This document shows positions 1 through 17,163 of a DNA stretch of 64,000 nt, piece by piece. The translations under genes were made by a program, and so were the position numbers. Origin of the DNA: Myxococcales bacterium. Lineage in GTDB: Bacteria > Myxococcota_A > UBA9042 > JABWCM01 > BTVJ01. The stretch lies in assembly GCA_045863395.1 (NCBI GenBank), contig BTVJ01000026.1, forward strand, positions 11,593 through 75,592, written 5' to 3'. The notes beneath the pieces were generated by a model that worked only from the letters and a program-made list of their open reading frames with translations, was not told the DNA's origin and did not search any database. Within the stretch, counting starts at the first letter, position 1. The number at the start of each line of letters is the position of its first letter.

Positions 1-300
1 TCTCCCTGGATAACAACACCTCGGAGAGAAGTCTCCAGATCACCGCCCTCGGACGCGACAACTTCCGCTGGGTCGGACACGACGAGGCCGGCGAACATCT
101 CGCCATCCTCCAGACCCTGGTCAGCACCTGCGTCTCCTACGGCGTCAACCCACATGCCCACCTCACCGACGTCCTCCTCCGTGTCACCACCCACCCGGCC
201 TCCAAGCTCGACGAGCTGCTCCCGATGAACTGGCAGCCCCCTGGCTGAGCCTCCGGAGCCTCGCGCCCCGCCGACCAGCGACCCCGCCACCACCGTACCT
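1..300 (+). mobile_element. IS66-family insertion sequence, 3' portion truncated by the window edge; right boundary not resolved
   Basis: Contains the C-terminal end of an IS66-type transposase (next feature). The terminal inverted repeat was not identified, so the end coordinate is approximate. Confidence 0.5.
3..248 (+). CDS. IS66-family transposase TnpC, C-terminal fragment (5' end outside window)
   Basis: Frame beginning at nt 3 reads SLDNNTSERSLQITALGRDNFRWVGHDEAGEHLAILQTLVSTCVSYGVNPHAHLTDVLLRVTTHPASKLDELLPMNWQPPG, stop TGA at 246-248. This matches the conserved IS66 transposase C-terminal pattern (DNN-x-ER, ALGR-x-N, S/T-L-I-x-T-C, G-x-N/D-P, HP-x3-L-D/E-ELLP-x-NW), recalled from memory. 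Absent from the ORF track because it has no start codon in the window. Confidence 0.7.
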   Translation, partial: SLDNNTSERSLQITALGRDNFRWVGHDEAGEHLAILQTLVSTCVSYGVNPHAHLTDVLLRVTTHPASKLDELLPMNWQPPG

Positions 301-608
301 GCAGCATGCACGCCTCCGCGCTCACTGTAGCACGGCTGTGGATGTCCGCCCGACGGGGGAGCTCGGACGAGGCCTCGGTCATCGTTTCGGCCACCCGGGT
401 CTGTGGACCGAGCGGGCCGGCCTCCTGTGGGGGCCGCAAGGTCGACCGCCGGCCGGCCGAACGGCTCGTGCGCCCCTCGGTTCTGGCCAGGCATTGGACG
501 AGACGATGACCATGGCCTCGGACGATTACGAAGTTGTCGCGTCCGGGAGTGGTGACCTGAAAGTAGCGCACCGGCTCGAGCATCTCCGCGGAGTGGTGGT
601 AGAGGTAT

Positions 609-977
609 GTGAGCGTGTTTGTCGCCCTCCTCGACTTCCTCGGGCAGCGCCTCCCCCGGGTCGCCAACGACATCGGCCGCGAAGACGTCCCAAGCACCCA
701 CAAGCTCACCGAGCGCGCTATCAAGGCATTCCAGCGCCACTACCGAAGATTGGCCGGCTTCGAGTCCATCGAGACCGCGCGAACCACGATGACCGTGCTC
801 AGCTTCTTCTATCGGATGACACCCTGGCCGAACGCCATCGCCCCGGACGACTGCGGCAAGTGCCCCGTGGAGCGGGCCGGGTGGCAAGTCCGCGGCGTCC
901 CCGTGGCCGACTCCCTCCGCGGCTTCACAAAACCGGAGGATCCCGGCGACCCTCACGGCGACTCGCCCAAAGCCTGA
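609..977 (+). other. Protein-like ORF of unknown family in otherwise non-coding-looking DNA; possibly a decayed gene or mobile-element remnant
   Basis: Translation (…LTERAIKAFQRHYRRLAGFESIETARTTMTVLSFFYRMTPWPNAIAPDDCGKCPVERAGW…) has balanced composition, unlike the Arg/Pro/Gly-rich overlapping ORFs around it. No family recognised, and an upstream frame (…DDYEVVASGSGDLKVAHRLEHLRGVVVEV) suggests possible frameshifts. Confidence 0.2.
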
Positions 978-1619
978 TCCGGCGACGCCGAACCGCGGCT
1001 CGACCCGACCGGACCCTGACGCTGCGGAGCCCCGGCGCCGGGCCTCCTGCGTCGAACCGGGCACCCGCGCGCCCTGCGCTCCCGCGCCCTTGCACCCGTC
1101 CACCGCCTCGCGCCCCAACCGCCTCAGCCGGCGCCGCCCCCGGAGAGCAACGAGGCTCTTGCGAGGGGAGCTCGCGGAACGCTCTCTCACACGGAGAGGT
1201 CACTGGCGCCGAGAATCGGTTGACAGCGCATGGGGATGGGCGCACACTGCCATCGGGAAACACTTATGAGACATTCAATGTGTGACAGTGCCCTTCGAAC
1301 CGCAGCCAGGACCCGGCAACAGCAGCCGGATGAGAGTTCGATGAGCGCCGAGACGGGCGCTGGCGTGCGACTGGATGCCCGATCACTGTTCCTCTGCGAG
1401 ACATGGGAAGGTCTGGGGGATCGACCCCGCGAGAGTGGGACAACTCCGCGGCATGGCGCGACGAGCAGGTCCAACCTCGGTCTGCACGCCAGGAGCGGAG
1501 ACCAGAGACATGCGAGTCGTACCAAATGGTCAGTCGAAGCATCGTCGCCAGAGAGGTCTGCCGCGGAGGCGGTCCCCTCGACGTTATGTGGTTCGTGGTG
1601 TTCGTCTAAGGTCCCGTGG

Positions 1620-1758
1620 AGGAATAACCTGACCCACCGAGAGCGCCGAATCGCCCCGCTGGCGGTCTGCCGAGACCGCAGGCAGGGTGGGGCCCTTCCA
1701 CGGTCTCGGCAGGCCGCCAGCGGGGATGCAGCGGCGCTCGAATGGACAGGTTATTCCT
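1620..1758 (+). ncRNA. Candidate structured RNA, or imperfect palindromic DNA element, of unknown class
   Basis: Three nested, perfectly complementary helices separated by asymmetric internal loops: 1620-1631 (AGGAATAACCTG) with 1747-1758; 1641-1648 (GAGCGCCG) with 1732-1739; 1654-1678 with 1701-1725 (25 bp including one G-U); apical loop 1679-1700. About 45 bp paired within 139 nt, in a 1.7 kb stretch without a convincing CDS. Strand is undetermined. Confidence 0.3.
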
Positions 1759-1860
1759 GTACGGGCCCTAAACACATCGGAGTGAGTTCGGCCCGCAGGT
1801 GCTATTTACAGAGGAGTAATTGAGATGAGGATGCAGTCCAGTGGCTCGACAGAGCCCCAA

Positions 1861-1870
1861 CCCCCCCCCC
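1861..1870. repeat. Homopolymeric C10 tract (preceded by CCCCAA) about 90 bp upstream of the subtilase-like gene
   Basis: Read directly: agagccccaa cccccccccc gacc. Confidence 0.9.
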
Positions 1871-1958
1871 GACCACCCGCCCCAGAGCATCTGGTTGCGC
1901 AGCGCAGCCGCCCTTCCGGCTTATCAGTGTAGCTGTTTCAGCGCTTCTCCTGTTTGAC

Positions 1959-3935
1959 GTGTCGGTCACCGTTCGAGCCGATGGATTGATGAACCCTTCC
2001 AGTTCCCCAACCCTGGAGTGGGGTGAAGGTGTGGCAAGCGACGGAGGAGGGCTCTACTCGACCTTCGATTCCTCCAGCCTGATGGACGCTCCCCCAAAAG
2101 ACGCATCCTACAATGCCTTTAAAGAGACACAGATTGAGATGGCAGGCATGGGTGAATCGCTCAATGTTCGAGTCTACGCGAAGCTTCTAGATACTCCACC
2201 CGACGAAGTCATTGGGGTCACACTTCTCCTGAAGGAAATTGACTTCGAGTGGGGTAGCTTCGCAGGGGCGGGAGCAGTTGCTCGACATGCTCTCGTCGCC
2301 TCGCGGAAAGCCCAGCTCCAGCCGAGCCAGTACTCTGTGATCAAGGAGCTCGTGAATATTGGTGCCATCGAAATTTCTCCGAACTGGCTCGTCAACCAGA
2401 TTGACGTACAGGTCCATGCGCTGGCTGCAATCGACCTGGCTGCAATCCCTGGAGTCGAAGGCACTCGCTTGAACGCCGATACGAACACCGGCCGAGCTTA
2501 CGGAGGCAGCGAGTCGCAGGACGGAACATTGATTGCCCAGTTCTACGCCCAGAGCCTGGACGGCCGATACGGAGGTCGATCAAACAGCAGGATCCGAGTA
2601 GGTGTAATTGAACCAGGGCCATTGGCGCGGTACCATGCAACCTGGGACTACTCGACAGGCACCGGCTCGCGTGTAACCCGCTACCGCGAGTGTACCGCCA
2701 GCGGGTGCATTGACTCACCCAACAACGCAACCGTGTCTTCGCATGGGACCTGGGTGTCATGGGTGGCAACCGGTAGCATCGAGGCCGGACAGGATCCCGA
2801 CTTCCCGGGAACCTATACAGTCGACCAACGCAACCGCAGTGGCCACCTCAAGGAGTCACTGCTGTACTACTATCAGGCAACCGAGAATTGTGCATCAGGG
2901 AAGCGGGCAATCGAGCAGGCGGTGCTCGACGGGATCGATGTCATCAACTTGTCGCTAGCGTGGGGCGGATCCGAGTCCAACTGCAACTCGGAATATGATT
3001 GCTCGGGACTGAATGCCGCCATTGCCACGGCCCTAGACAGCGGAATTCTGACAGTGGCCTGTGGTGGGAACGCTCCCGACACGTCCGTCTGCCACGTTTG
3101 GTACCCTGGTCTCAGGACCGAAACTGTGGCCGTTGTTGCGCTTCTCAGCGATCCCTCGACGAGCCCGTATGACAGCCTCGGTCTACGCCCCGACGCTTCC
3201 GCGGGAGGGCTTCCGATCAGAACTTTCTTGGGTGCCGGCACGACGACACCAGCCATCGACTTGGCTGCTCCCGGCACATTCACAATGTATGCAACCGTGG
3301 CTCCACACGCCAATGGCTCCAGCACGATTGGAGGATGCTCATTCGCGACGCCTGTCATCACTGCGTCTGCGGGCGCTCTTCGCAACGCGTTTGCAGTGAT
3401 TGGCTGGTCCAACACCAACGCGAAGATGCTCATGGTGAATCTATTGCTGCTCGGCGACGGCTGGAGCGGAAGCGGAGTCCCGGGGTCGTATCCGCCAACT
3501 ACAGTATCGAGCCGCAGTGGATTCGGCCGGGTCCGCGCGCACTGGCCAGACGACGAGAGCATGGCCGGCGATTGGGGCTGGGGCTGGCGTGCCTTCACGA
3601 TCTACGAGGGGCAGACGGTAACGTGGAACGTGGGTACCTCGGGCCCTGAGAGCACCAGCATCACGGAGTGGAAGTGGGCTACGCTCTGGTTCGAGCCCGA
3701 TCTGCAGAACGTCGCCGACATCGACTTCGAGGTATGGGACATGTGCGCGCCAGGAGGCCCTGTCATGCTCCACGCTGACTGGTCGCTGAGCTTGCGCTCT
3801 CGGTTCAACCTCCTCGGACCCAGCATTGGAGGGAAGTGTCTGCAAATGCGAGCATACGGCTACAGGGTTCCTGCACAAGGAAGAGTGATCTATAGTGCCG
3901 ACTACTACCATTCGGGCACTCCGTCTATGTACTAG
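1959..3935 (+). CDS. Subtilase-like (peptidase S8 family) protein without a signal peptide, with about 200 aa of N-terminal sequence of unknown function
   Basis: 658-aa ORF starting at GTG 1959 (first ATG at 1989). S8-like motifs in order: RVGVIEPG (Asp-region position, Glu in place of the usual Asp), SSHGTWVSWVATGS (His motif), INLSLAWGGS, VACGGNAPDTS (Asn motif), GGCSFATPVITASAGAL (Ser motif). No N-terminal hydrophobic signal. G+C visibly lower than the flanking genes. RBS not obvious. Confidence 0.75.
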   Translation: MSVTVRADGLMNPSSSPTLEWGEGVASDGGGLYSTFDSSSLMDAPPKDASYNAFKETQIEMAGMGESLNVRVYAKLLDTPPDEVIGVTLLLKEIDFEWGSFAGAGAVARHALVASRKAQLQPSQYSVIKELVNIGAIEISPNWLVNQIDVQVHALAAIDLAAIPGVEGTRLNADTNTGRAYGGSESQDGTLIAQFYAQSLDGRYGGRSNSRIRVGVIEPGPLARYHATWDYSTGTGSRVTRYRECTASGCIDSPNNATVSSHGTWVSWVATGSIEAGQDPDFPGTYTVDQRNRSGHLKESLLYYYQATENCASGKRAIEQAVLDGIDVINLSLAWGGSESNCNSEYDCSGLNAAIATALDSGILTVACGGNAPDTSVCHVWYPGLRTETVAVVALLSDPSTSPYDSLGLRPDASAGGLPIRTFLGAGTTTPAIDLAAPGTFTMYATVAPHANGSSTIGGCSFATPVITASAGALRNAFAVIGWSNTNAKMLMVNLLLLGDGWSGSGVPGSYPPTTVSSRSGFGRVRAHWPDDESMAGDWGWGWRAFTIYEGQTVTWNVGTSGPESTSITEWKWATLWFEPDLQNVADIDFEVWDMCAPGGPVMLHADWSLSLRSRFNLLGPSIGGKCLQMRAYGYRVPAQGRVIYSADYYHSGTPSMY

Positions 3936-4012
3936 TCTCGACTCGGTAACCCAGTGGAGAGGGACAGTTCAGGACGAGGTACGCGGCCTGGTGGTACCAG
4001 ACAGGAGAAGTC

Positions 4013-4738
4013 ATGAAGAGTGTGAGGCATCTCGTGTTGACGGTGCTGGCATTGGTCGCCTGTGACGGCGCTCCGGAGTCCAGCTCCGCCGACAAGTCCG
4101 CAGTGGCGGACGGTTTGGACGCGGGCGCCACCGGCTGCGACGTGTGTGTGGCGGCTGAGACCCTGAACCCGACTCTCGGTCCGTGCGCGTCAGGTACGCT
4201 GCCAACCACGGGAAGGTTGTACGACCAGGCTGCTGACTGCGTGTCGCCGGAGACCACCGTGCTGGCATGCTACCCCGATATAAGTCCCGACGCCTACGCT
4301 ACGCAGGGCAGTGGCTGCTACGTGCACGAGCCAACGGGCGTTGCCTTCATCGCCGTCTGGGACGGTCCGGAACTCTCCGGGGAGTACCATCGCTGCGACG
4401 AGAAGTATTGGCAGATCCGTGAGGCGGCCGCCGAGGCGGAGCCCTGCGTGGACGGTGCTCCCGCTCAAGCATGTGGGAGTCCCGACGGGGCCGGTGAGTG
4501 TGGTGCCGGCTGCACTCCGGTCTACGGCGCGCCGTGGAACGTGGGTGAGGGCTGCGCTCAGGGGAAGGTGGAGTTGGGCTGGTGTACCTATTTGTATAGC
4601 GACGCTCCTCCCCACTGGTGCGTGGTGGATGAAGCAACAGGTACTGTCTACCTAGGCGTCAACGGAGTGCCTCACGGCCACCGACAGTGCACGGAGGCGG
4701 AGCTACCGGCTGCCTCGGCGGTGCAGTGGTGTCCTTGA
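4013..4738 (+). CDS. Cys-rich lipoprotein, function unknown
   Basis: AGGAGA RBS 6 nt upstream of ATG. N-terminus MKSVRHLVLTVLALVAC has a signal peptide with lipobox L-V-A-C. Mature part has many Cys, probably disulfide-bonded. Confidence 0.7.
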   Translation: MKSVRHLVLTVLALVACDGAPESSSADKSAVADGLDAGATGCDVCVAAETLNPTLGPCASGTLPTTGRLYDQAADCVSPETTVLACYPDISPDAYATQGSGCYVHEPTGVAFIAVWDGPELSGEYHRCDEKYWQIREAAAEAEPCVDGAPAQACGSPDGAGECGAGCTPVYGAPWNVGEGCAQGKVELGWCTYLYSDAPPHWCVVDEATGTVYLGVNGVPHGHRQCTEAELPAASAVQWCP

Positions 4739-5023
4739 AGTTGCGCTGCATGCCCAGTGTCGCACCCCGTTGCACGCAAGCTGTCCGAGAACTCCGTAGT
4801 GAATCCCGGAACGGAACGTCGTCATGATCGAGCCGAGGTCCGGGCTGTCGTTCCGTTGTTCCAGTGAGCGAGAGCCAGCGCGCTGAGAGGGTGGTGCCAC
4901 CCGGGCTGTGGCGGGGGGCCGACAAGCGGCGACAACTTCGTCGACGACCCGGGGATGTCCACACGCCGATCTTGCGTCCCGTGGTGCCCCCGGCTATGGT
5001 GCCCCCCTTCCCGGAGCCGACCG

Positions 5024-7357
5024 ATGACGCCCGCGACGGACCGCACACCCTGGGTGCTCGCCAGCCTGCTCGGCGCCGTCGCCGCGGGGCTCGTGCTGGT
5101 GGTGCATGCGGTCGTGACGGGCGACGGGGCGCTCGACGTGCCGGGCGCCGGGGACACGGCCGCTGCCATCCTCTTCCTCTTCGGTACGACGTGGGCCGTC
5201 GCTCTGACCTGGGGCCTGGCCGTGGGAGTGGTGACCGGGGCCGTCCACGCGACCTTGCATGGGTGGTGGCAAGGCTTCCGCGCCCGCCTCGCCGACCCCG
5301 AGCGCGACGTCTCCACCGCCGCCGGCCTGCTCGCTGCGGCGCTGGCTGCAGCGGTCTGGATGGTGCTCTTCGTGCGCCTCTACGCGAGCCGCGACGAGGA
5401 GTTCCTCATCAAGGTGGGCACGGCGTCCCGCTTCTTCGCCGTCGGGACGGCCGCGCTCCTCGCCGTCGCCGTGGCTGCCTGGTTCCCGGTCCACCGCCTG
5501 CTCCGGTGCGCCCTCGTCTGGCGCATCGACCGCCTCCGCTCCGCCGCGTGGCCCCTGACGCGGCGCCTCACGGTGGCTGCCCTGGCGTGCGCCGCGCTCG
5601 CCGTCGCCGCCGCCGTGTGGCTCATGGAGTCCAACGAGGAGTTGGCCAATGTGCGGCGCCTCCCGCTGTACCTCCTCACGTTGGCGCTGCTCCACGGGGT
5701 GGCGACCGCCGCCCTGCGCCGCCTCCACCTGCGCCACGGGTGGGCGCTCCTCGGGGCGCCTGTCATCGTCGTGATCCTCACCGTCCTGGGCATTGACCGG
5801 GTGCCCGCCGCCCACGAGGCCGCCGAGACGCGCTCCGACGTGCAGGCCATGCTCTTGCGCTTGCTCCGAGGCCCGCTGGACCTCGACGGGGACGGCTACG
5901 CGGCGCTGCTCGGGGGCGGCGACTGCGACGACTGGGACGCGGCGGTGGGGCCGCACGCCGGTGAGGTGGCGGGCAACGGCGTCGACGACGACTGCCAGGA
6001 CGGGGACGCGGACCCGACGGCCGCCGCCGCGTGGGAGGCCGACCCGTCGCTGCTCGCCGAGGACGAGCCGCCGAGCGCCCCCGTCGACACGCCCAGGCCC
6101 ATCCACGGGACCGACGCGCCCGCCGCCCCAGTCACCGCCGACGCGCCCGCGGGGCCCGGGACCGTCGAGGCCCCCACGCCCCGCCCGGACGCGCCCCCGC
6201 CCCTGCCGCGCAAGGGCCTGAACGTGCTCTTCATCGTCGTCGATACGCTGCGCGCCGACCATGTCGGCTTCTACGGCTACGAGCGGGACACGACCCCGGC
6301 CATCGACGCGCTGGCGCGCCAGTCGGTGGTGTTCCGCTACGCCTACGCCCAGGCCAACAACACGCCCCGGTCCATGCCGTCGCTCCTGACGTCGCGCTTC
6401 CCGAGCGCCATCCGGTGGGTGCGCCTCGACCGCAACTACCCCCAGCTCAAGGACGCCGAGCACACCGTCGGGGAGTCCCTGGCGGATGGGGGCTACCGGG
6501 TCGAGGCGGAGACGTCGCACTACTACTTCGTGCCCAAGCGCAGACTCGACCAGGGCTTCCACGAGTGGAGCAACCCCGGGGCGGGCACCATCGCTGAGGC
6601 CAACGAGGCGGTGACGGCGCCCAAGCTGCTGCCCCGGGCCATGGCGCGCCTGGAGAAGCTGTCACAGCGCGAGGAGCCCTGGTTCCTGTTCGTGCACTTC
6701 TTCGAGCCCCACGCCTCGTACATCCCGCACAAGCCCCCGGCGGACTTCGGGCGCACGCTGAAGGACCGCTATGACGGCGAGATCCGGTTCACCGACGACC
6801 ACGTGGGCCAGCTCCTGGCGAAGCTGGACGCGCTGGGGCACCGGGAGGACACGCTCGTCATCCTGACCTCGGACCACGGGGAGGCCTTCCGCGAGAAGGG
6901 CTACTTCTTCCATGGCCACTCGGTCTACAACGTGGAGCTGCGGGTCCCGCTCGTCATGCGCCTGCCAGGCGTCGACCCGCGGGTCATCGACGAGCGGGTG
7001 GCGCTGCTCGACGTCGTCCCGACCATGCTGTCCGCCATCGGGCTGCCCATCGCCCCGACCATGCAAGGTGTGGACCTGGTCCCTACCATCCTGCACGGCG
7101 AGCGGCGCGGCCTGCCCATCTACGCGGAGCTGCTGCCCTACCCCAACTGGCCGGAGGACCAGCGCGCGTTGATCCTCGGCCACCACAAGGTGCTCTACAC
7201 GAAGAAGGGCAACGTCTGGGAGCTCTACGACATCCAGGCCGACCCCTTCGAGAAGGAGAACCTGTTCCGCACCCACTCGAAGGCGCAGACCTACAAGAAG
7301 GCGCTGCTCGACTGGATGGCGCTCCACGCCCACCCGAAGGCCATGCGCGGGCCGTGA
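5024..7357 (+). CDS. Polytopic membrane protein with C-terminal sulfatase-fold (alkaline-phosphatase superfamily) domain and a central DGDG/DDDC putative metal-binding motif
   Basis: ORF 4955..7357; preferred start ATG 5024 (GGAG 9 nt upstream). Several N-terminal hydrophobic helices, then DLDGDGYAALLGGGDCDDWDAAVGPHAGEVAGNGVDDDCQDGDAD, a Pro/Ala-rich linker, then sulfatase-like motifs LNVLFIVVDTLRADHVGFYGY, NNTPRSMPSLLTS, TSDHGE. The signature position normally Cys/Ser before TPxR is Asn. Confidence 0.8.
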   Translation: MTPATDRTPWVLASLLGAVAAGLVLVVHAVVTGDGALDVPGAGDTAAAILFLFGTTWAVALTWGLAVGVVTGAVHATLHGWWQGFRARLADPERDVSTAAGLLAAALAAAVWMVLFVRLYASRDEEFLIKVGTASRFFAVGTAALLAVAVAAWFPVHRLLRCALVWRIDRLRSAAWPLTRRLTVAALACAALAVAAAVWLMESNEELANVRRLPLYLLTLALLHGVATAALRRLHLRHGWALLGAPVIVVILTVLGIDRVPAAHEAAETRSDVQAMLLRLLRGPLDLDGDGYAALLGGGDCDDWDAAVGPHAGEVAGNGVDDDCQDGDADPTAAAAWEADPSLLAEDEPPSAPVDTPRPIHGTDAPAAPVTADAPAGPGTVEAPTPRPDAPPPLPRKGLNVLFIVVDTLRADHVGFYGYERDTTPAIDALARQSVVFRYAYAQANNTPRSMPSLLTSRFPSAIRWVRLDRNYPQLKDAEHTVGESLADGGYRVEAETSHYYFVPKRRLDQGFHEWSNPGAGTIAEANEAVTAPKLLPRAMARLEKLSQREEPWFLFVHFFEPHASYIPHKPPADFGRTLKDRYDGEIRFTDDHVGQLLAKLDALGHREDTLVILTSDHGEAFREKGYFFHGHSVYNVELRVPLVMRLPGVDPRVIDERVALLDVVPTMLSAIGLPIAPTMQGVDLVPTILHGERRGLPIYAELLPYPNWPEDQRALILGHHKVLYTKKGNVWELYDIQADPFEKENLFRTHSKAQTYKKALLDWMALHAHPKAMRGP

Positions 7358-8207: not shown

Positions 8208-8441
8208 GGCACCACCTCCACGTCCATGGTAGCACGAGCGGAGCGCCGCCGTGCGCTGCTTGTCTCTGCGCGCTGCCGCTGACAAATTGGCGCGCGCGTC
8301 TCGACGATCTGTGTCAAACTGGCGCTGCTGGTCGGCGGCGCCCTCCAAGGTGCCGCAGATTCAAGCAGATCCGCCGTGGCACCCTTCTTGCGTCGGCAAG
8401 CGCGCCCCCCGACGCTCGGAGGGGCCACCGCGGAGGAAGGC

Positions 8442-9854
8442 ATGGCGTCGAGCGCACTGGCAGAGCGGCTCCCCTGGAGCCCCGTCGAGGAGGTCATGGA
8501 GCGGAGCGGGCTCACCGGGCGACCGGTCATCCTCGTGGTCGACGACGACACGTCCAACCTGGCGTCGCTGCAGCGGGTCTTCGAGCGTGAGGAGCTGGAC
8601 GTCATCGCGGCGGAGGACGGGCGGGCGGCCCTCGACATCCTGCGGCGGCAGCGGGTGGACGTGGTCCTCACGGACGTCATGATGCCGGGCATCACGGGCA
8701 TGGACCTGCTCAAGACCGTCCGCACCGTGTCGCCGGAGGCCGAGGTGATCCTCATGACCGCCTTCGGCACCATCGAGACGGCGGTCGAGGCCATGAAGGA
8801 CGGCGCCTACGACTTCATCACCAAGCCCTTCAAGCGCATCCAGGTCGTACGCTCCGTGCGCCGCGCCCTGGAGAAGCAGTCCCTGCTGACAGAGAACCGC
8901 GCGCTCCGCGAGCGCCTGGAGACCATGCTCCAGGAGAAGGACATCATCGGCTCCAGCGTGGCCATCCGGAAGGTGGTCGACATGGTCCACCAGGTGGCGC
9001 CGAGCGCCGCCACGGTGCTGCTGCAGGGCGAGAGCGGCACGGGCAAGGAGCTGTTCGCGCGAGCCATCCACCGCCACAGCGCCCGGTCGGGCGGCCCCTT
9101 CGTCGCCATCAACTGCGCCGCCATCCCCGAGAGCATCCTGGAGAGCGAGCTGTTCGGGTATGAGCGCGGGGCGTTCACCGGGGCGGCGCAGCGCAAGGAG
9201 GGGCGGTTCAAGCTCGCCGACGGCGGCACGCTGCTCCTCGACGAGATCGGGGAGGTCGCTCCGGCGGTCCAGGTCAAGCTGCTGCGGGTGCTCCAGGAGG
9301 GCGAGATAGAGCGCCTCGGCGGGACCCAGCCGGTCAAGGTGGACGTGCGCATCGTCGCGGCGACCAACAAGAACCTGGCCGAGGAGGTGAAGCGGGGACG
9401 CTTCCGCGAGGACCTCTTCTACCGGCTGAACGTCATCGCCATCAACCTGCCGCCTCTTCGGGAGCGCCGGGACGACATCCCGCTTCTGGCCACTCACTTC
9501 CTGCGGATCTTCTGCGACAAGAACCGGAAGGAGATCCGTGGTTTCCAGCGGGACGCGCTGGAGGCGCTCGCCGGCTGGGACTGGCCGGGCAACGTGCGGG
9601 AGCTGGAGAACACCATCGAGCGGGCCGTGGTGCTGTGTCGCGGCGATACGGTGCGGCGCGAGGACCTGCCCGAGCACATCGCGGAGTCGGACAATGCCCC
9701 GCTGCCGCACATCACGGTGGCGCTGGGCACCCCCCTGGAGGACGTGGAGAAGCAGCTCATCCGGGAGACCCTGCGGATGACGAACGGCGACAAGCGCCTG
9801 GCCGCACAGCTCCTGGGCATCGCCACGCGGACCATCTACAGGAAGATCGACTGA
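8442..9854 (+). CDS. Sigma-54-dependent Fis-family response regulator (NtrC-like: receiver + AAA+ + HTH)
   Basis: GGAGGAAGG RBS before ATG 8442. Receiver (VILVVDDD…DVVLTDVMMPG), sigma54-interaction AAA+ motifs (LLQGESGTGKELFARAIH, ESELFGYERGAFTGA, GGTLLLDEIGE, FREDLFYRLNV), C-terminal HTH (LLGIATRTIYRKI). Confidence 0.9.
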   Translation: MASSALAERLPWSPVEEVMERSGLTGRPVILVVDDDTSNLASLQRVFEREELDVIAAEDGRAALDILRRQRVDVVLTDVMMPGITGMDLLKTVRTVSPEAEVILMTAFGTIETAVEAMKDGAYDFITKPFKRIQVVRSVRRALEKQSLLTENRALRERLETMLQEKDIIGSSVAIRKVVDMVHQVAPSAATVLLQGESGTGKELFARAIHRHSARSGGPFVAINCAAIPESILESELFGYERGAFTGAAQRKEGRFKLADGGTLLLDEIGEVAPAVQVKLLRVLQEGEIERLGGTQPVKVDVRIVAATNKNLAEEVKRGRFREDLFYRLNVIAINLPPLRERRDDIPLLATHFLRIFCDKNRKEIRGFQRDALEALAGWDWPGNVRELENTIERAVVLCRGDTVRREDLPEHIAESDNAPLPHITVALGTPLEDVEKQLIRETLRMTNGDKRLAAQLLGIATRTIYRKID

Positions 9855-10226: not shown

Positions 10227-11210
10227 ATGGAGACCCTGTTCAAACGGTACTTCTGGGTGATCAACCTGCTCGCGCTGGCGGCGGCCGCGTGGATGCTGGC
10301 GACCACCATCAATGAGTACGTGAGCAGGAAGCTCCTCGCGGTGCCGGCGGCGGAGCTCTCTGCCGACAAGAGCAAGGGCGGCGCCCTGTCCCCCCGAACC
10401 CTGTGGGCGGACAACATCTCAGACGAGCTCAAGTCGCGGCGGCCGTTCAACTCCGACCCGCCCGCCGAAGAGAAGGTAGACGAGGGAGGCCCCGTCGACG
10501 AGGATCCCGTGGAGGAGGCGCCGGAGGAGGAGCAGGTCATCGAGTGCGACCAGCTCGGCGTGAACCTCATCGGCACGATGATCTCGCCGGAGCCCTCCAT
10601 GTCCATGGCGACCATCGAGGCGGAGGGCGCCACCAAGCTCATCCGCCTTGGCACGTCCGTCCTCGACAAGGCGGAGGTCAGAGAGATCTCGCGGCGCTAC
10701 ATCCGCCTCTCGCAGGGCGACAAGGACTGCGTCGTGCGCCTCTGGGGCGAGAAGGCCCCCCCGGGGATGCGCCCTGGCGCCCGCCCGGGCATGCCGCCCA
10801 TGCCCGTCGCGCGGCCCGCCCAGAACCCGGCGGCGGCAGCCCCCCGGCAGCCCACCCAGGACTACGCGGCGGGCGTCAAGCAGAAGAGCGAGACGGAGTT
10901 CGAGATCAGCCGCGCCATGATCGACCAGAACCTGGAGGACCTGAGCACGCTCGGAATGCAGGCCCGCATCGTGCCCAACTACCGCAACGGCAAGTACGAG
11001 GGGTTCAAGCTGGTCGGGGTGCGCCCGAACAGCCTCTACCGGGCCATCGGGATCCGCAGCGGCGACGTCATCAAGAGGATCAACGGGCGTGAGATCAACA
11101 GCCCGAACAAGGCCATCGAGCTCTTCGAGAGCCTCAAGAACTCGAGCAACATCGCCCTCGACATCGAGCGCCGGGGGCAGCTCTCGACGATGCAGTACAC
11201 GATCAAGTAG
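10227..11210 (+). CDS. gspC: Type II secretion system protein GspC-like (N-terminal membrane anchor, C-terminal PDZ)
   Basis: N-terminal hydrophobic helix (YFWVINLLALAAAAWMLATTI), Pro/Ala-rich linker, C-terminal PDZ-like segment (GIRSGDVIKRINGREINSPNKAIELFESL). First gene of the gsp operon. Confidence 0.75.
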   Translation: METLFKRYFWVINLLALAAAAWMLATTINEYVSRKLLAVPAAELSADKSKGGALSPRTLWADNISDELKSRRPFNSDPPAEEKVDEGGPVDEDPVEEAPEEEQVIECDQLGVNLIGTMISPEPSMSMATIEAEGATKLIRLGTSVLDKAEVREISRRYIRLSQGDKDCVVRLWGEKAPPGMRPGARPGMPPMPVARPAQNPAAAAPRQPTQDYAAGVKQKSETEFEISRAMIDQNLEDLSTLGMQARIVPNYRNGKYEGFKLVGVRPNSLYRAIGIRSGDVIKRINGREINSPNKAIELFESLKNSSNIALDIERRGQLSTMQYTIK

Positions 11211-11274
11211 ATGCACGTGGCCCGGCCGCGGCCCGCTCCGGCGCGGCCCGCCTCAACACGAACTCGGAGTCCCT

Positions 11275-14031
11275 GTGCGCGTCTCACTGTCCAACATCTC
11301 GGCGTCTGCCCGCTCAGTCGCACGCCTGCTTGCGGCGCTGATCGTCCTGGCCGCGTCCGTCGCCCAAGGGCAGCAGCCGGTGCCCGTGCGGCCCGCGCCC
11401 GTCAACCCCCCGGTCGATCCCGGCGGGGGCGCGGGGGTGATCAACAAGGGCGGGGCCCAGCCGCTGCCCTTCGACCCCAAGCAGCTCGGGCAGCCCGGCG
11501 TCGGTGAGGCGCCCATCGCGGGAGAGGCCGGCTCGGACGTCTCCCCCACGCCCGTCGATGACATGATCACGTTCAAGTCCAACTACGAGAAGGACGTGAA
11601 GTGCATCAAGCTGCCGCTGAACGCCAAGATCAACATCGACTTCGAGGACGCGGACCTGCTCTCCGTCGCCAAGTTCATCGGGTGCATCACGGAGCAGAAC
11701 TTCATCCTGGCGGGTGGCCTGAAGGGCAAGACGATCACGATCATGAGCCCCAAGCCGGTGACCGCCTATGAGGCGTACCGGGCGTTCCTGGCGGCCCTCG
11801 AGATCAACCAGATGACGATCGTTCCGACGGGCAAGTTCCTCAAGATCGAGGACGTCGGCAAGGCCAAGCAGGACACCCTGCCCATCTACGGGCCGCGCCA
11901 GAGCGTGCCCGGGGACGAGCGCTTCGTCACGCGGCTCGTCCAGCTCGAGCACATCGGCGCCGACGAGATGTCGCAGGTGCTGATGAAGTTCAAGACCGCC
12001 CAGGGCGACATCTCCACCTACCCGCCGACCAACACGCTCATCGTCACGGACACGGGCGTGAACATCAAGCGCATGCTCGGGCTGCTCAAGGAGCTGGACG
12101 TCCCGACGGGCAAGGAGCGGGTGTGGATCCGCCAGGTCGAGTACGCCCAGGCGACGGAGCTGGTCGACAAGCTCATGCAGGTGTTCGGCGAGCAGCAGGG
12201 GGCAGCGGCGAAGGCGTCGGCGGCGGAGGCAGCCCGGCGGCGCCTCGAGGCGCGGCGGGCGGCCCAGGCGCGCGGGGCGCAGCAGCCAGCAGCGGCGAGC
12301 GCCCCGATGGCGGGCGAGCAGGGGCTGGAGCCCGGCGCCGTGTCCGTGTCGAAGATCCTGGCCGACGAGCGCACGAACCAGCTCATCATCGTGGCCAACC
12401 GCACCAGCTACTTCAAGCTCGACAAGCTGATCCGCAAGCTGGACGTGCCGATCCCCGGGGAGGGGCAGATCCACATCCACTACCTGGAGAACGCCGACGC
12501 CGACGAGATCTCCAGCACCCTGTCCTCGCTCACGCAAGGGGGGGCGGCCGGTGGCGCGCGAGGCGCAGGTGCCCGCCCGCGGACGGGCGCCCCCGCGGCG
12601 GCGGGCGCTCCCGCGGGCGCAGCGGGCGGCGCGGGCGGCTCGGCCGCGCTCTTCGAGGGCGAGGTGAAGATCACGGCCCACAAGGAGACCAACTCCCTCG
12701 TCATCGAGGCGTCGCTCAAGGACTACCTGAACCTGAAGAAGGTCATCCAGCGCCTGGACGTGCGCCGCAAGCAGGTCTACGTGGAGGCGGTGATCATGGA
12801 GATCACGTCGTCCAAGGACCAGAAGCTCGGCATCAGCGGGTCGGCGGGGACCACGTTCGACATCGACGGCAACGAGGTGCCGCTGCTGTTCGGGCTCGGC
12901 GGCCTGGGCATCTCGTCCTTCGACCTGCAGCAGCTCCAGAAGGGCGGCATCGCGGCCGGCATGCAGGGGCCGCTGGTCGATGTGGATCCGGGCTCGGCCG
13001 CGCGCTCCGGCGCCCTGTCGCTGCCGACCTTCGGGTTCCTGATCCAGGCGCTGCACTCGAACTCCGACGTCAACATCCTGTCGACGCCGCACATCCTGAC
13101 CACGGACAACGAGGAGGCGGAGATCCAGGTGGGCAAGCAGATCCCGTACCGTGCCTCCGGGGTTGGGGGCGGGCTCGGCTCCCTGGCGTCGCTGGCCGGC
13201 CTCGGCGGCGGCCTGACCCAGAACGCGGGCAGCGCCTTGGGCGGCCTCGGCGGCCTCGGCGGGCTGGGGGCCCTCGGCGCCCTGGGCGGCCTCGGTACGA
13301 CCCAGTACGTGGACGTGGACCTGACCCTGAAGATCACCCCGCACATCAACGAGAGCGACTTCGTGCGGCTGGAGATCGACCAGGAGATCGAAGACGTCGA
13401 GAGCATCCAGGCGGATCTGGGGCCGACGACCAGCCGCCGGAAGGTCAAGAACACCGTGGTGGTGAAGGACCAGCAGCCCGTGGTCATCGGTGGCCTGATC
13501 CGCGACACCGAGACCGAGGGCGTGGACAAGGTGCCCTTCCTCGGCGACATCCCCGTGCTCGGCTACCTGTTCCGCAAGAACGTGCGGACGACGGAGAAGA
13601 AGAACCTGCTGATGATCATCGTGCCGACCATCATCAGCGATCCGAGCGACCTCAAGCGCATCCACGAGAACCGCATGCAGGAGATGCGGGACTTCGGCGA
13701 CCAGCTCGCAACCAAGAAGAAGGAGTACATGGGCCAGGTGGACTACCGCAAGAAGAGCGGAATCCTGCAGCACATGAACTCGGTTGTCTCCAGAGCGCGC
13801 ACGGATCGCGAGCTGTTGGAGAAGACCACCTTCGACCAGTCGGAGCTGGACCTCATCGGGCCGCCGGAGACCCACGACATCGAGTACGACCCCTACGAGG
13901 CGGAGAAGGAGCGCCGGGCCCGCGCCCGTGGGGCGGCGAAGCCCGCCGCGACGGAGCCTGCCGCGCCTGCGCCTGCCACCGTCCGGCCCGAGACGGACTC
14001 CATCGAGATCGATCCGGACGACGGGCCATGA
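11275..14031 (+). CDS. gspD: Type II secretion system secretin GspD
   Basis: Start set at in-frame GTG 11275 (GGAG 8 nt upstream), giving signal peptide VRVSLSNISASARSVARLLAALIVLAASVAQG. The ORF-track start 11089 would overlap gspC by 120 nt with an Arg/Ser-rich N-terminus. N-domains, a Gly/Ala-rich insert and the secretin domain (IPVLGYLFRKNVRTTEKKNLLMIIVPTII) are present. Confidence 0.85.
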   Translation: MRVSLSNISASARSVARLLAALIVLAASVAQGQQPVPVRPAPVNPPVDPGGGAGVINKGGAQPLPFDPKQLGQPGVGEAPIAGEAGSDVSPTPVDDMITFKSNYEKDVKCIKLPLNAKINIDFEDADLLSVAKFIGCITEQNFILAGGLKGKTITIMSPKPVTAYEAYRAFLAALEINQMTIVPTGKFLKIEDVGKAKQDTLPIYGPRQSVPGDERFVTRLVQLEHIGADEMSQVLMKFKTAQGDISTYPPTNTLIVTDTGVNIKRMLGLLKELDVPTGKERVWIRQVEYAQATELVDKLMQVFGEQQGAAAKASAAEAARRRLEARRAAQARGAQQPAAASAPMAGEQGLEPGAVSVSKILADERTNQLIIVANRTSYFKLDKLIRKLDVPIPGEGQIHIHYLENADADEISSTLSSLTQGGAAGGARGAGARPRTGAPAAAGAPAGAAGGAGGSAALFEGEVKITAHKETNSLVIEASLKDYLNLKKVIQRLDVRRKQVYVEAVIMEITSSKDQKLGISGSAGTTFDIDGNEVPLLFGLGGLGISSFDLQQLQKGGIAAGMQGPLVDVDPGSAARSGALSLPTFGFLIQALHSNSDVNILSTPHILTTDNEEAEIQVGKQIPYRASGVGGGLGSLASLAGLGGGLTQNAGSALGGLGGLGGLGALGALGGLGTTQYVDVDLTLKITPHINESDFVRLEIDQEIEDVESIQADLGPTTSRRKVKNTVVVKDQQPVVIGGLIRDTETEGVDKVPFLGDIPVLGYLFRKNVRTTEKKNLLMIIVPTIISDPSDLKRIHENRMQEMRDFGDQLATKKKEYMGQVDYRKKSGILQHMNSVVSRARTDRELLEKTTFDQSELDLIGPPETHDIEYDPYEAEKERRARARGAAKPAATEPAAPAPATVRPETDSIEIDPDDGP

Positions 14032-14049: not shown

Positions 14050-15834
14050 GTGAGGATGGGTGACGTGGTGCTGTCCGCGCACATGGACATGGCCCCGAGG
14101 CGCCTCGGCGAGATCCTTCTCGAGCGCGGCAAGGTGACCCGCTCGCAGCTCGACGCGGCGCTCCAGTCCCAGGCCGACAAGGGGGGGCGCCTCGGCGAGG
14201 TGCTGATCGCGATGCGCTCCTGCCAGGAGGAGGACGTCCTGGAGGCCCTGTCCGTGCAGCTCGGGATCCCCATGATCACGGGCATCCAGCTCGACCAGAT
14301 GGACCCGGCCATCGTCGCGCCGCTGTCGATCACCTACGCCAAGCAGCACGTCTTCCTGCCGATCGAGCGCACGGACGACGCGCTGATCGTCGCGGTCAAC
14401 GATCCCCTCGAGATCTACGCCCTCGACGATCTGCGCACCATCTACGACCGTCCCGTGGAGCCGCGCATCGCCTCGTCGACCGTCATCCTGGAGGCCATCA
14501 ACAAGATCTTCGACCGGCGCGCCGGCGCCGATCAGGTCATGGACGAGCTCGAGACCCAGGACCTGGACAAGGTCGCCCACGATCTGGAGGCCGAGGCCCA
14601 GGACATCCTCGACGCCGACGACGAGGCGCCGATCATCCGGCTCGTCAACTCGGTCCTGAACCAGGCGGTCAAGGAGAAGGCCAGCGACATCCACATCGAG
14701 CCCTTCGAGAAGTTCGTCAGCGTGCGGTTCAGAAAGGACGGCGTGCTCCACGACATCATCCACGCGCCGAAGCGCTTCCAGTCCTCCATCACGAGCCGCA
14801 TCAAGATCATGGGGGACTTGAACATCGCCGAGAAGCGGCTTCCCCAGGACGGCCGCATCCGCATCAAGGTGGCCGGGCGCGACATCGACATCCGCCTCTC
14901 CACCGTCCCGACCAGCCACGGCGAGCGGCTCGTGCTCCGGCTCCTCGACAAGACCAACACGGTGCTCGATCTGCGCCGCCTCGGGTTCTCGAAGGAGAAC
15001 TTCGAGAAGATGGAGCAGCTCCTCAAGCGACCGCACGGCATCCTGCTCGTGACCGGCCCGACGGGAAGCGGCAAGACGACCACCCTGTACGCCGCGCTGA
15101 CCAGCATCAACTCGCCGGACAAGAACATCCTGACCGTCGAGGATCCGGTGGAGTACCAGATCCACGGCATCGGGCAGATGCAGGTCAACCCGAAGATCAA
15201 CTTCACCTTCGCCTCGGGGCTCCGCGCCATCTTGCGCCAGGACCCGGACGTGGTGCTCGTCGGCGAGATCCGCGACCTGGAGACGGCGGAGATCGCCGTC
15301 CAGGCGTCGCTGACCGGCCACCTCGTGTTCTCGACGGTCCACACCAACGACTCGGCGAGCACGTTCACGCGGCTCATCGACATGGGGGTCGAGCCGTTCC
15401 TCATCGCGTCGTCCGTGGCCGCCTGCGTGGCCCAGCGCCTCGTGCGGCGCATCTGCAAGCACTGTCGCGAGCCATACACGCCCGCCGACGCGGAGCTGGA
15501 TCAGCTCGGGCTGCTGGGGCCCACGGCGAGGTTCGCGCCGCTCCTGCGGGAGCGCTTCGGGGCCGAGCGGCCCATGTTCTTCCGCACGGTGGGCTGCAAG
15601 GAGTGCGCGGGCACGGGGTACTCGGGGCGCGCCGCCATCTATGAGATGCTGGTCGTCAGCGACGAGATCCGCACGCTGGTCATGCAGAACGTCTCGTCCA
15701 CGGAGATCAAGAAGAAGGCCGTGGCCTTGGGCATGTTGTCGCTCCTCGACGACGGGGCGCTCAAGGTCATCGACGGGGAGACCACCGCCGAGGAGGTCTT
15801 CCGCGTGGCCAGCGTTCGGGACGAGGTGTTCTAG
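14050..15834 (+). CDS. gspE: Type II secretion system ATPase GspE
   Basis: Walker A GPTGSGKTT, Asp box, Walker B VVLVGEIRD, His box, tetracysteine CKHC…CKEC. Start ambiguous between GTG 14050 and ATG 14056 or 14083. Confidence 0.95.
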   Translation: MRMGDVVLSAHMDMAPRRLGEILLERGKVTRSQLDAALQSQADKGGRLGEVLIAMRSCQEEDVLEALSVQLGIPMITGIQLDQMDPAIVAPLSITYAKQHVFLPIERTDDALIVAVNDPLEIYALDDLRTIYDRPVEPRIASSTVILEAINKIFDRRAGADQVMDELETQDLDKVAHDLEAEAQDILDADDEAPIIRLVNSVLNQAVKEKASDIHIEPFEKFVSVRFRKDGVLHDIIHAPKRFQSSITSRIKIMGDLNIAEKRLPQDGRIRIKVAGRDIDIRLSTVPTSHGERLVLRLLDKTNTVLDLRRLGFSKENFEKMEQLLKRPHGILLVTGPTGSGKTTTLYAALTSINSPDKNILTVEDPVEYQIHGIGQMQVNPKINFTFASGLRAILRQDPDVVLVGEIRDLETAEIAVQASLTGHLVFSTVHTNDSASTFTRLIDMGVEPFLIASSVAACVAQRLVRRICKHCREPYTPADAELDQLGLLGPTARFAPLLRERFGAERPMFFRTVGCKECAGTGYSGRAAIYEMLVVSDEIRTLVMQNVSSTEIKKKAVALGMLSLLDDGALKVIDGETTAEEVFRVASVRDEVF

Positions 15835-15900: not shown

Positions 15901-17163
15901 ATGGCTGTCTTCGAGTACAAGGGGCTGAACGCGAAGGGGAAGCCCGTCACGGGCGTCCTGGATGCGGACAACCCGCGCGTGCTGAAGATGAACCTCCGCA
16001 AGGACGGCATCTTCCTCACGGAGTACGCGGAGACCGACAAGGGGGGGGCGAAGAAGGCGGTCGTCAAGGGCACCCTCAAGACGGCCGGGTCCAAGGACGT
16101 CGAGCTCGGGCGCATGTTCCAGCGCGTCAAGCTCATGGACGTCGCCATCGTGACCCGCCAGCTCGCAACGCTGATCAAGGCGGGCATCCCGGTGGTTGAC
16201 TCTTTGTCAGCGACCATCGACCAGACGGAGAACCCCAAGCTCAAGTCCGTGCTGACCGCGGTGCGGCAGCAGATCAACGAGGGCTCCTCGCTGGCCAACG
16301 CGCTGGCCCAGCACCCCAAGACGTTCAGCGAGATGTTCGTGAACATGGTCCGCGCCGGCGAGTCGTCGGGCACCCTGGACCTGGTGTTCCTGCGCCTGGC
16401 GGACTTCATCGAGGGCCAGGTCAAGCTCCGCACCAAGCTCATCGGGTCCATGATGTACCCGGTGATCATGGTCGTGCTCGGCTTTGTCATTGTGTCACTG
16501 ATGATGGTCTTCGTGATCCCGAAGATCACCGAGATGTTCGCCGAGATGGGCGCGACGCTGCCCTGGCAGACCCGCATGCTCATCGGGGCCAGCGACTTCT
16601 TCCGCTCCTGGTGGTTCCTGATCTTCGGCGCAATGGGCGGCGCGGCCTGGTGGTTTCGCAAGTGGAAGGCCGGTGAGGCGGGGCGCGCGCGCTGGGACGG
16701 GATGATCCTCAAGTTCCCGATCTTCGGCGAGCTCAACCGGATGATCGCCATCACCCGCTTCTCGACGACCTTTGGCACGCTTCTGGCTAGTGGAGTCCAG
16801 CTCCTCGTGGCGCTCGACATCGTCAAGAGCGTGCTCAACAACGTGGTGCTCGCCCAGGTCATCGACGACGCGCGCACCGGGATCCGCGAGGGAGAGAGCA
16901 TCGCCGGCCCGCTGAAGCGGTCCGGGCAGTTCCCGCCGATGGTCACGCACATGATCGCCATCGGAGAGAAGTCCGGGCAGCTCACGGAGATGCTGACCAA
17001 CGTGTCGAGCGCCTACGAGGCCCAGGTGGAGAGCCGTGTGGGCCAGCTCACCGCCGTCCTGGAGCCGGTGATGCTCGTGCTGATGGGTATCGGCGTCGCG
17101 TTCCTCGTGTTCGCGATCCTCATGCCCATGCTCCAGATGAACGAGGCGATCTCGGGCGGCTGA
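15901..17163 (+). CDS. gspF: Type II secretion system inner-membrane platform protein GspF
   Basis: 420 aa with two GspF-type repeats and three TM segments; GGGAGAGAGC RBS before ATG. Confidence 0.9.
   Translation: MAVFEYKGLNAKGKPVTGVLDADNPRVLKMNLRKDGIFLTEYAETDKGGAKKAVVKGTLKTAGSKDVELGRMFQRVKLMDVAIVTRQLATLIKAGIPVVDSLSATIDQTENPKLKSVLTAVRQQINEGSSLANALAQHPKTFSEMFVNMVRAGESSGTLDLVFLRLADFIEGQVKLRTKLIGSMMYPVIMVVLGFVIVSLMMVFVIPKITEMFAEMGATLPWQTRMLIGASDFFRSWWFLIFGAMGGAAWWFRKWKAGEAGRARWDGMILKFPIFGELNRMIAITRFSTTFGTLLASGVQLLVALDIVKSVLNNVVLAQVIDDARTGIREGESIAGPLKRSGQFPPMVTHMIAIGEKSGQLTEMLTNVSSAYEAQVESRVGQLTAVLEPVMLVLMGIGVAFLVFAILMPMLQMNEAISGG

Follow-up and report, generated by a model that had tools for sequence, protein, structure and literature searches.

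Layered mobile-element debris at the gene-poor left end of a 64-kb stretch of Myxococcales DNA

What fills the largest gene-free stretch of a 64-kb piece of Myxococcales DNA, the whole of which we call the window? The stretch in question, positions 1 to about 1770, opens inside an IS66-family transposase gene and closes about 220 nt upstream of the start of an S8 peptidase gene, and a first interpretation made from the letters alone (the sequence-only reading) had suggested decayed mobile DNA or an insertion boundary. Our analyses support that suggestion. With good confidence, though short of certainty, we regard 1 to about 1770 as an accumulation of mobile elements, truncated or inserted into one another, that borders on the left a low-GC island with the S8 peptidase gene. 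Each piece to which an origin can be assigned is derived from a mobile element: an IS66 tail, a 147-bp insert, a fragment of a DDE-type transposase gene and a 158-bp palindrome. The region encodes no working system and is ordinary, layered mobile-element wreckage, in which two pieces resemble miniature inverted-repeat transposable elements (MITEs). Its features, from left to right, are as follows.

3-247, + strand (frame +3): 3' end of an IS66-family transposase (TnpC) gene, 81 codons and a TGA stop (245-247), cut by the window edge
248-370, + strand: 3' non-coding tail of IS66 and inner part of its right terminal inverted repeat (GCCCGACGGGGGAGCTCGGACGA), aligning with the tail of the related locus L004 (...GCCCGACGGGGGACTTCGGACGCGTAC)
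363-370, no strand: left copy of an 8-bp target-site duplication, TCGGACGA, read from the sequence and identical to 518-525
371-517, no strand: non-coding MITE-like element of 147 bp within the IS66 right repeat, with 19-nt terminal inverted repeats GGCCTCGGTCATCGTTTCG / GGCCATGGTCATCGTCTCG
518-529, + strand: right copy of the target-site duplication (518-525) and tip of the IS66 right end (4 nt, TTAC, 526-529)
530-559, - strand: 30-nt inverted copy (26/30) of the IS66 transposase codons at 36-65
621-977, + strand: 5'-truncated C-terminal fragment (about 115 codons and a stop) of a large DDE transposase-like gene, in a frame open from 609
978-1609, no strand: featureless non-coding DNA, 79% GC at 978-1150 and about 63% GC without codon periodicity in the rest
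1610-1767, no strand: near-perfect, MITE-like palindrome of 158 nt with terminal repeats GG(T/G)CCCGYRSAGGAATAACCTG, flanked by TAA/TA

The layout recurs in other assemblies. Over window 307-4853, Logan contig L003 agrees with the sequence at 100% identity; contigs L001 and L002 do so at 99.9% from 414. Because these contigs reproduce the layout, the arrangement from 307 rightwards is not an assembly artefact of one record. In this part, GC content by codon position looks like that of coding DNA in two places only, 1-240 and about 540-960. From about 1140 to 1980 it is level across the codon phases (0.60-0.67), and nowhere else in the 64 kb does the GC contrast between codon positions stay low for as long as over the 1380 nt at 841-2220. 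None of the 17 open reading frames (ORFs) tested in 137-1969 matched Pfam, apart from two non-significant matches to a 35-aa ORF. The low-periodicity run and the ORFs without a significant Pfam match agree with the earlier statement that no convincing coding sequence follows the transposase gene, and homology searches for a conserved intact gene, sought as a refutation, recovered none.

That the window opens in the 3' end of an IS66-family transposase gene, as had been proposed, is confirmed by domain models. The product of 3-247 matches Pfam DDE_Tnp_IS66_C (PF13817) with an E value of 9e-10 and 39 bits, where the cutoff is 30; it also matches the final 30 positions of the DDE_Tnp_IS66 profile (PF03050) and profile positions 328-386 of 387 in NCBIfam transpos_IS66. 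The 81 codons within the window are intact, with a GC content at third codon positions (GC3) of 0.85-0.90, and 139-237 matches annotated IS66 transposase genes on two plasmids. The nearest relative of the 81-aa fragment is the TnpC C-terminus on L004, with 80% aa identity over 80 aa; this locus, of the same clade, also carries a TnpB_IS66 ORF. The closest relatives are all short or frameshifted genes. At L024 (143-1791) an IS66 3' fragment adjoins an rve-type integrase gene on the opposite strand, and the clade is there again truncated among mobile genes.

Terminal inverted repeats of the IS66 family, as defined in ISfinder, are about 20-30 bp long and start with 5'-GTAA, and such a repeat should mark where the element stops. 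The right ends of L004, L005 and L024 read ...CGGACGCGTAC, 69-134 nt past the stop codon, and their flanks diverge at once, beginning right after ...GTAC. L005 is the most instructive of the three, since its positions 352-1069 hold a 718-bp internally deleted IS66 derivative that consists of the left end, the deletion, the last ~100 tnpC codons and the right end. Its bounds are GTACGCGTCCGAG.../...CTCGGACGCGTAC, or more fully GTACGCGTCCGAGACTCCCCGTCGGG at the left and ...GGCTCGGACGCGTAC at the right, and a perfect 8-bp target duplication, AGCAGCAG, flanks it. L005 thereby establishes for this IS66 clade how the element ends and how many bases it duplicates at its target. The duplication agrees with the 8 bp listed for IS66-family elements of 2.7-2.8 kb (PMC3281130, Table 2).

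Against this template the window departs in one respect. The matching tail, GCCCGACGGGGGAGCTCGGACGA, breaks off at 370, and the missing tip, TTAC, is found at 526-529. When 371-517 and one copy of TCGGACGA are removed, the window reads ...GCCCGACGGGGGAGCTCGGACGATTAC, which ends 129 nt past the stop (134 nt in L004) and is identical to L004 at 23/27 positions. The reverse complement of 503-529, likewise with the insert removed, is GTAATCGTCCGAGCTCCCCCGTCGGGC and begins with GTAA, as seen here for the right end only. An uninterrupted terminal repeat would read ...GAGCTCGGACGATTAC; in the window the 147-bp element splits it and leaves just the outermost 12 nt in one piece, and GTAATCGTCCGAG has its sole exact match in the window at 517-529 on the minus strand. 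The IS66-family element on the + strand thus ends at 529. The IS66 assignment of the earlier reading stands, and its boundary at about 250 does not, for the element continues to 529 through a terminal repeat that an insert has split. We also dropped an end at about 370, initially described as lacking its last 5 nt, because the terminal-repeat and target-duplication structure of 371-517 explains the gap.

Since its terminal repeat is split, this IS66 copy is, to judge from the sequence, now probably crippled and would be immobile. Beyond the left edge of the window we predict an end that reads GTAATCGTCCGAGC... and an 8-bp duplication, GAAGTTGT; the accessory tnpA and tnpB genes that precede tnpC in the family would also lie there. 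The copy resembles the IS66 family as ISfinder defines it (IS66, IS679, ISPpa5a/ISPpa7) in its TnpC C-terminal domain and in a right-end reverse complement that starts GTAA(T)CG, and its clade relatives add the TnpB gene (L004) and the 8-bp duplications (L005). Unlike a typical IS66 element, it is represented in the window by its last ~530 bp only, its terminal repeat carries a 147-bp insertion, and its relatives are no closer than the 80% identity given above, the close ones found being all fragments.

The insert itself has the anatomy of a small transposable element. Its terminal inverted repeats at 371-389 (+) and 499-517 (-) were found where chance would yield 0.2 matches and are complementary at 16/19 positions, and the DNA fold pairs both ends of the element. 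A perfect 8-bp TCGGACGA lies on either side, and conceptual excision of 371-517 with one copy of that duplication restores the IS66 end consensus. We conclude that a miniature element with terminal inverted repeats inserted into the IS66 terminal repeat and duplicated 8 bp. Contigs L001 and L002 break inside the element, at 414, which is a weak hint of its repetition; further copies can be sought with the string GGCCWYGGTCATCGTYTCG.

MITEs are known from other bacteria, among them the Correia elements of Neisseria, RUP and Nezha. Both 371-517 and 1610-1767 share with them a small size (147 and 158 bp), the lack of coding capacity and terminal inverted repeats as boundaries; 371-517 further shows the perfect 8-bp target duplication, and 1610-1767 resembles TA-targeting MITEs in folding as one long hairpin with TA/TAA flanks. 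They differ from established MITEs in that no autonomous parent was identified for either, that one copy of 371-517 was found, and that the family of 1610-1767 comprises two members in different organisms. The ends of both also differ from the IS66 ends of the same region.

The protein-like piece at 609-977 comes from another source. Its frame is open for 122 codons on the + strand, with a coding-type GC3 of 0.85-0.88. A word-indexed protein search returned the ORF itself only, and phmmer (HMMER) against 1.84 billion representatives gave 91 matches, its own cluster included, of which the best non-self match has an E value of 2.6e-32 and ~50-51% identity. The ORF aligns to the last ~105 residues (about 690-800) of proteins of 820-860 aa, for example to 691-794 of 822. 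In tblastn comparisons of eight homologues with the window, homology opens sharply at 621-627 and closes at 920-968, and nothing upstream of 621 is matched in any frame. The C-terminal alignment and the abrupt start at 621 therefore identify a 3' remnant that has lost its first ~690 codons. With 90 homologues besides itself and its coding-type GC3, 609-977 is indeed protein-like, as had been suspected, and we can add that it derives from a second transposase family, different from IS66.

The full-length homologues show the motifs DEKW..., ...VTD... and TNN.TER, and match the DDE models of IS66, Mutator/IS256, IS240/IS6 and ISL3 weakly, all below the curated cutoffs. From 621 to 953 the window is 43-53% identical to the C-terminal ~105 residues of P0024, P0030, P0034 and P0109-type proteins and shares with them the region ...TER.IK.F..HY....G.ESIETAR... 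and KCP.E.AG; unlike them, it has only the last ~14% of the gene. The two Asp regions, DEKW... and ...VTD..., are absent, and with them a full-length DDE core. Next to the catalytic Glu, the conserved TNN is replaced by THK, a change consistent with relaxed constraint: 39/44 homologues have NN at this place and none has HK. The piece is a fragment, not a member gene, of this large DDE transposase-like family. Motif resemblance had pointed to membership in ISL3, which was rejected, as the scores of the homologues are weak and under the cutoff for ISL3, IS256, IS6 and IS66 models alike.

Several observations concern the family itself. Six of the large proteins (P0020, P0024, P0030, P0031, P0034, P0036) have an N-terminal region of ~450 residues that looks hydrophobic or membrane-like by eye and has no Pfam domain; such an N-terminal half is unusual for a transposase. 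On five contigs with full-length transposase-like genes of ~755-857 aa (L018 at 3857, L019 at 502, L021 at 502, L022 at 509 and L023 at 646), the start codon is preceded, at a distance of 100-145 nt, by GTTCGTCCGCCTC..., and further upstream the flanks no longer agree. In sequence the motif is similar to the left end of IS66 (GTAMKCGTCCG); a matching right-end repeat was sought downstream and not found, and no terminal inverted repeats were seen around the full-length P0024-type members examined.

It is tempting to speculate that the proteins of ~820-860 aa represent an undescribed insertion sequence (IS) family, an IS66-related subgroup or a domesticated transposase, and that the 158-bp palindrome founds a new MITE family of uncultured Myxococcota-like bacteria. 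The hydrophobic-looking N-terminal half, a helix-turn-helix, the conserved GTTCGTCCGCCTC motif upstream of the genes and a DDE core that no named IS family model scores above its curated cutoff invite the first part of this idea; we nevertheless hold the idea to be doubtful. Were it true, the window would hold merely a dead fragment of the transposase-like family and one copy of the palindromic MITE family.

It might also be asked whether 609-977 is a functional small protein, for instance a retained C-terminal domain that regulates or inhibits transposition. It was predicted by gene callers in three independent assemblies, and its open frame of 122 codons with coding-type GC3 runs, at ~50% identity to homologues, without an internal stop or frameshift over 111 aligned residues; moreover, 56/90 of its database matches are themselves no longer than 300 aa. 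Those short matches are, however, probably partial genes on short contigs. The homology begins exactly where the frame opens and has nothing to match it upstream, both catalytic Asp regions are gone, THK has replaced TNN beside the catalytic Glu, and no convincing ribosome-binding site precedes the frame. We consider a functional small protein improbable and retain the reading of 609-977 as a dead transposase fragment.

The palindrome at 1610-1767 is the most conspicuous structure to the right of this fragment, with a predicted RNA fold of -128.5 kcal/mol (z -11.6). When metagenomes were scanned for its sub-terminal repeats, with a gap of variable length allowed between them, L017 was recovered, where positions 2466-2624 have the same 22-nt ends around an unrelated interior, in a different context, and again fold as a hairpin (z -9.9). 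The ends read GGGCCCGCGCAGGAATAACCTG / CAGGTTATTCCTGCGCGGGCCC in L017 and GGTCCCGTGGAGGAATAACCTG / CAGGTTATTCCTGTACGGGCC(C) in the window. The flanks are TAA/TAA (or CTAA/CTAA) in the window and TTA/TAA in L017, with only TA in common, which would fit a target duplication of either TA or TWA. Conserved ends, a variable interior and a different context argue for a MITE family over a gene-specific regulatory hairpin, and by its sequence 1610-1767 looks like a MITE. No similar palindrome occurs elsewhere in the window; the search string for the element is GGGCCCGYRCAGGAATAACCTG. In L017 the flank directly to the right of the element (2626-2640) reads TAAGGGCCCGTCC and repeats the element's GGGCCCG start, possibly as a remnant of an adjacent copy or as a preferred palindromic target. 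An interpretation of the palindrome as an integron attC site or a retron msd was rejected: judged by eye, the R'/R'' cores do not match, and Pfam scans of the S8 gene and of the tested ORFs to ~17 kb gave no integrase or reverse-transcriptase match.

A hairpin of such stability, ~220 nt upstream of the S8 start, could also suggest that 1250-1990 is a structured 5' leader or non-coding RNA controlling the S8 peptidase, with 1610-1767 as a regulatory or terminator hairpin and not a mobile element; by our own reading a TTGACA hexamer lies at 1219-1224. The rest of the proposed leader does not behave accordingly. A search for structured RNA in 1150-1605 showed that these remaining 456 nt fold like shuffles on both strands (z 0.07 and 0.04), a scan of 978-1990 with Rfam 15 returned only generic hairpin (miRNA-precursor) models at 36 bits against a threshold of 82 bits, and a sigma-70 promoter scan was empty. 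The identical 22-nt ends in L017 fit a transposable element and not a leader specific to one gene. A regulatory leader is thus very improbable here, and the palindrome is better taken as MITE-like.

Immediately outside the IS66 end, the inverted scrap at 530-559 copies codons (36-65) that encode ...QITALGRDNF, with the GRDNF motif. The match has a blastn E value of 7e-4 and a local alignment score of 40, against 20.5 +/- 2.5 for shuffles, which reached a maximum of 30. Its simplest reading, which we offer tentatively and at slightly less than even chances, is that a further IS66-like transposase gene, on the opposite strand, was the site into which the IS66 inserted. The far larger claim that a single decayed IS66 transposase gene fills the minus strand from ~380 to 1560, its tail facing that of the + strand copy, draws on a collinear chain of six weak minus-strand high-scoring segment pairs (HSPs) in tblastx against the L004 transposase region (summed E 3.5e-6) and on the inverted match at 530-559, but we rejected it and give it next to no credence, since composition-corrected tblastn over the whole window leaves one weak HSP on that strand (E 0.33), several HSPs of the chain lie outside the transposase frame, the minus-strand ORFs have no Pfam matches, and 621-977 clearly comes from a + strand gene of another family, by which the claim is effectively refuted there.

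Between the transposase fragment and the palindrome, 978-1609 gave no Pfam match for any ORF, no Rfam match, no tRNA or tmRNA and no tandem repeat, and we treat it as leftover spacer or decayed sequence. A candidate right end of a large-transposase element at 1410-1444, suggested by weak resemblance to the motif that precedes the large-transposase genes, read as its reverse complement, was discarded as not significant, 4/166 control segments and 12/300 shuffles being as good.

These pieces would fit a simple order of events. The truncation of a large DDE transposase gene may have come first; next to it an IS66-like copy would have landed, followed by the present IS66, and the miniature elements would have inserted last. 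Several points weigh against this account, and against the reading of the region as mobile-element debris in general. The left part of the IS66 element, with its left end and target duplication, lies outside the window. Among the genomes searched there was no close relative that could show an empty site, the best match to the neighbouring sulfatase being 45% identical. The 147-bp element was found once only, as neither the rest of the 64-kb window nor 25 retrieved loci nor viral contigs hold another, and its mobility is read from a single configuration of terminal repeats and target duplication. The palindromic family has two members so far, with an ambiguous target duplication (TA or TAA). 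The match at 530-559 does not extend, its minus-strand peptide has no Pfam match, and composition-corrected tblastn gives it only E 0.33. Finally, 978-1609, about one third of the region, has no assigned origin.

To the right of the debris, the following features were recognized.

1768-1988, + strand: upstream region of the S8 peptidase gene, with a 35-codon ORF (1825-1932) and a C10 tract (1861-1870)
1989-3935: S8 peptidase gene (Pfam Peptidase_S8)
4013-4738: orphan ORF of 241 aa without domains
8376-9854: sigma-54-dependent response regulator
11089-14031, 14050-15834 and 15901-17163: type II secretion set of GspD secretin, GspE ATPase and GspF

From ~1770 to 4850 the GC content is 56-62%, against 70-77% beyond, and this segment is probably a horizontally acquired island. 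In the S8 peptidase the N-terminal ~250 aa contain no domain and, by eye, lack an obvious signal peptide; defence-system models (PADLOC) matched neither the S8 gene nor its neighbour. A GAGGAG Shine-Dalgarno-like motif precedes the 35-codon ORF (MRMQSSGSTEPQPPPRPPAPEHLVAQRSRPSGLSV) by 8 nt, and the ORF contains the C10 homopolymer. Contig L002 stops at 1872, 2 nt past that tract, perhaps because the tract varies in length or is hard to sequence. Contig L003 stops at 4853, and among the low-periodicity runs the one at 4261-5130 ranks second in length. Past the island follow a sulfatase gene, the sigma-54 response regulator and the type II secretion operon. Among GTDB representatives the best match to the sulfatase, in metagenome-assembled genomes of Bradymonadales and Myxococcales, has 45% identity, and no close relative was found. 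Two Logan gene calls in the region look spurious: 1230-1823 (+; 197/195 aa) crosses the palindromic element with flat codon-position GC, and 137-724 (-; an 88-aa partial) overlaps the IS66 tail and the 147-bp insert.

In summary, the largest gene-free stretch of the window can be explained as nested mobile-element debris, and the value of this explanation is mainly one of annotation. The IS66 boundary moves from ~250 to 529, and three public gene calls are flagged, one as a transposase fragment (609-977) and two as spurious (the minus-strand 137-724 and the 197-aa call through the palindrome). What is new here are members of kinds already known: an IS66 clade, a pair of MITE-like elements, and part of a gene from a DDE transposase-like family that is poorly characterised. 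The insertion nested in the IS66 terminal repeat introduces no new principle and is a clean textbook example of its kind, and the debris as a whole marks the left edge of an S8 peptidase island of low GC content that this bacterium probably acquired horizontally.

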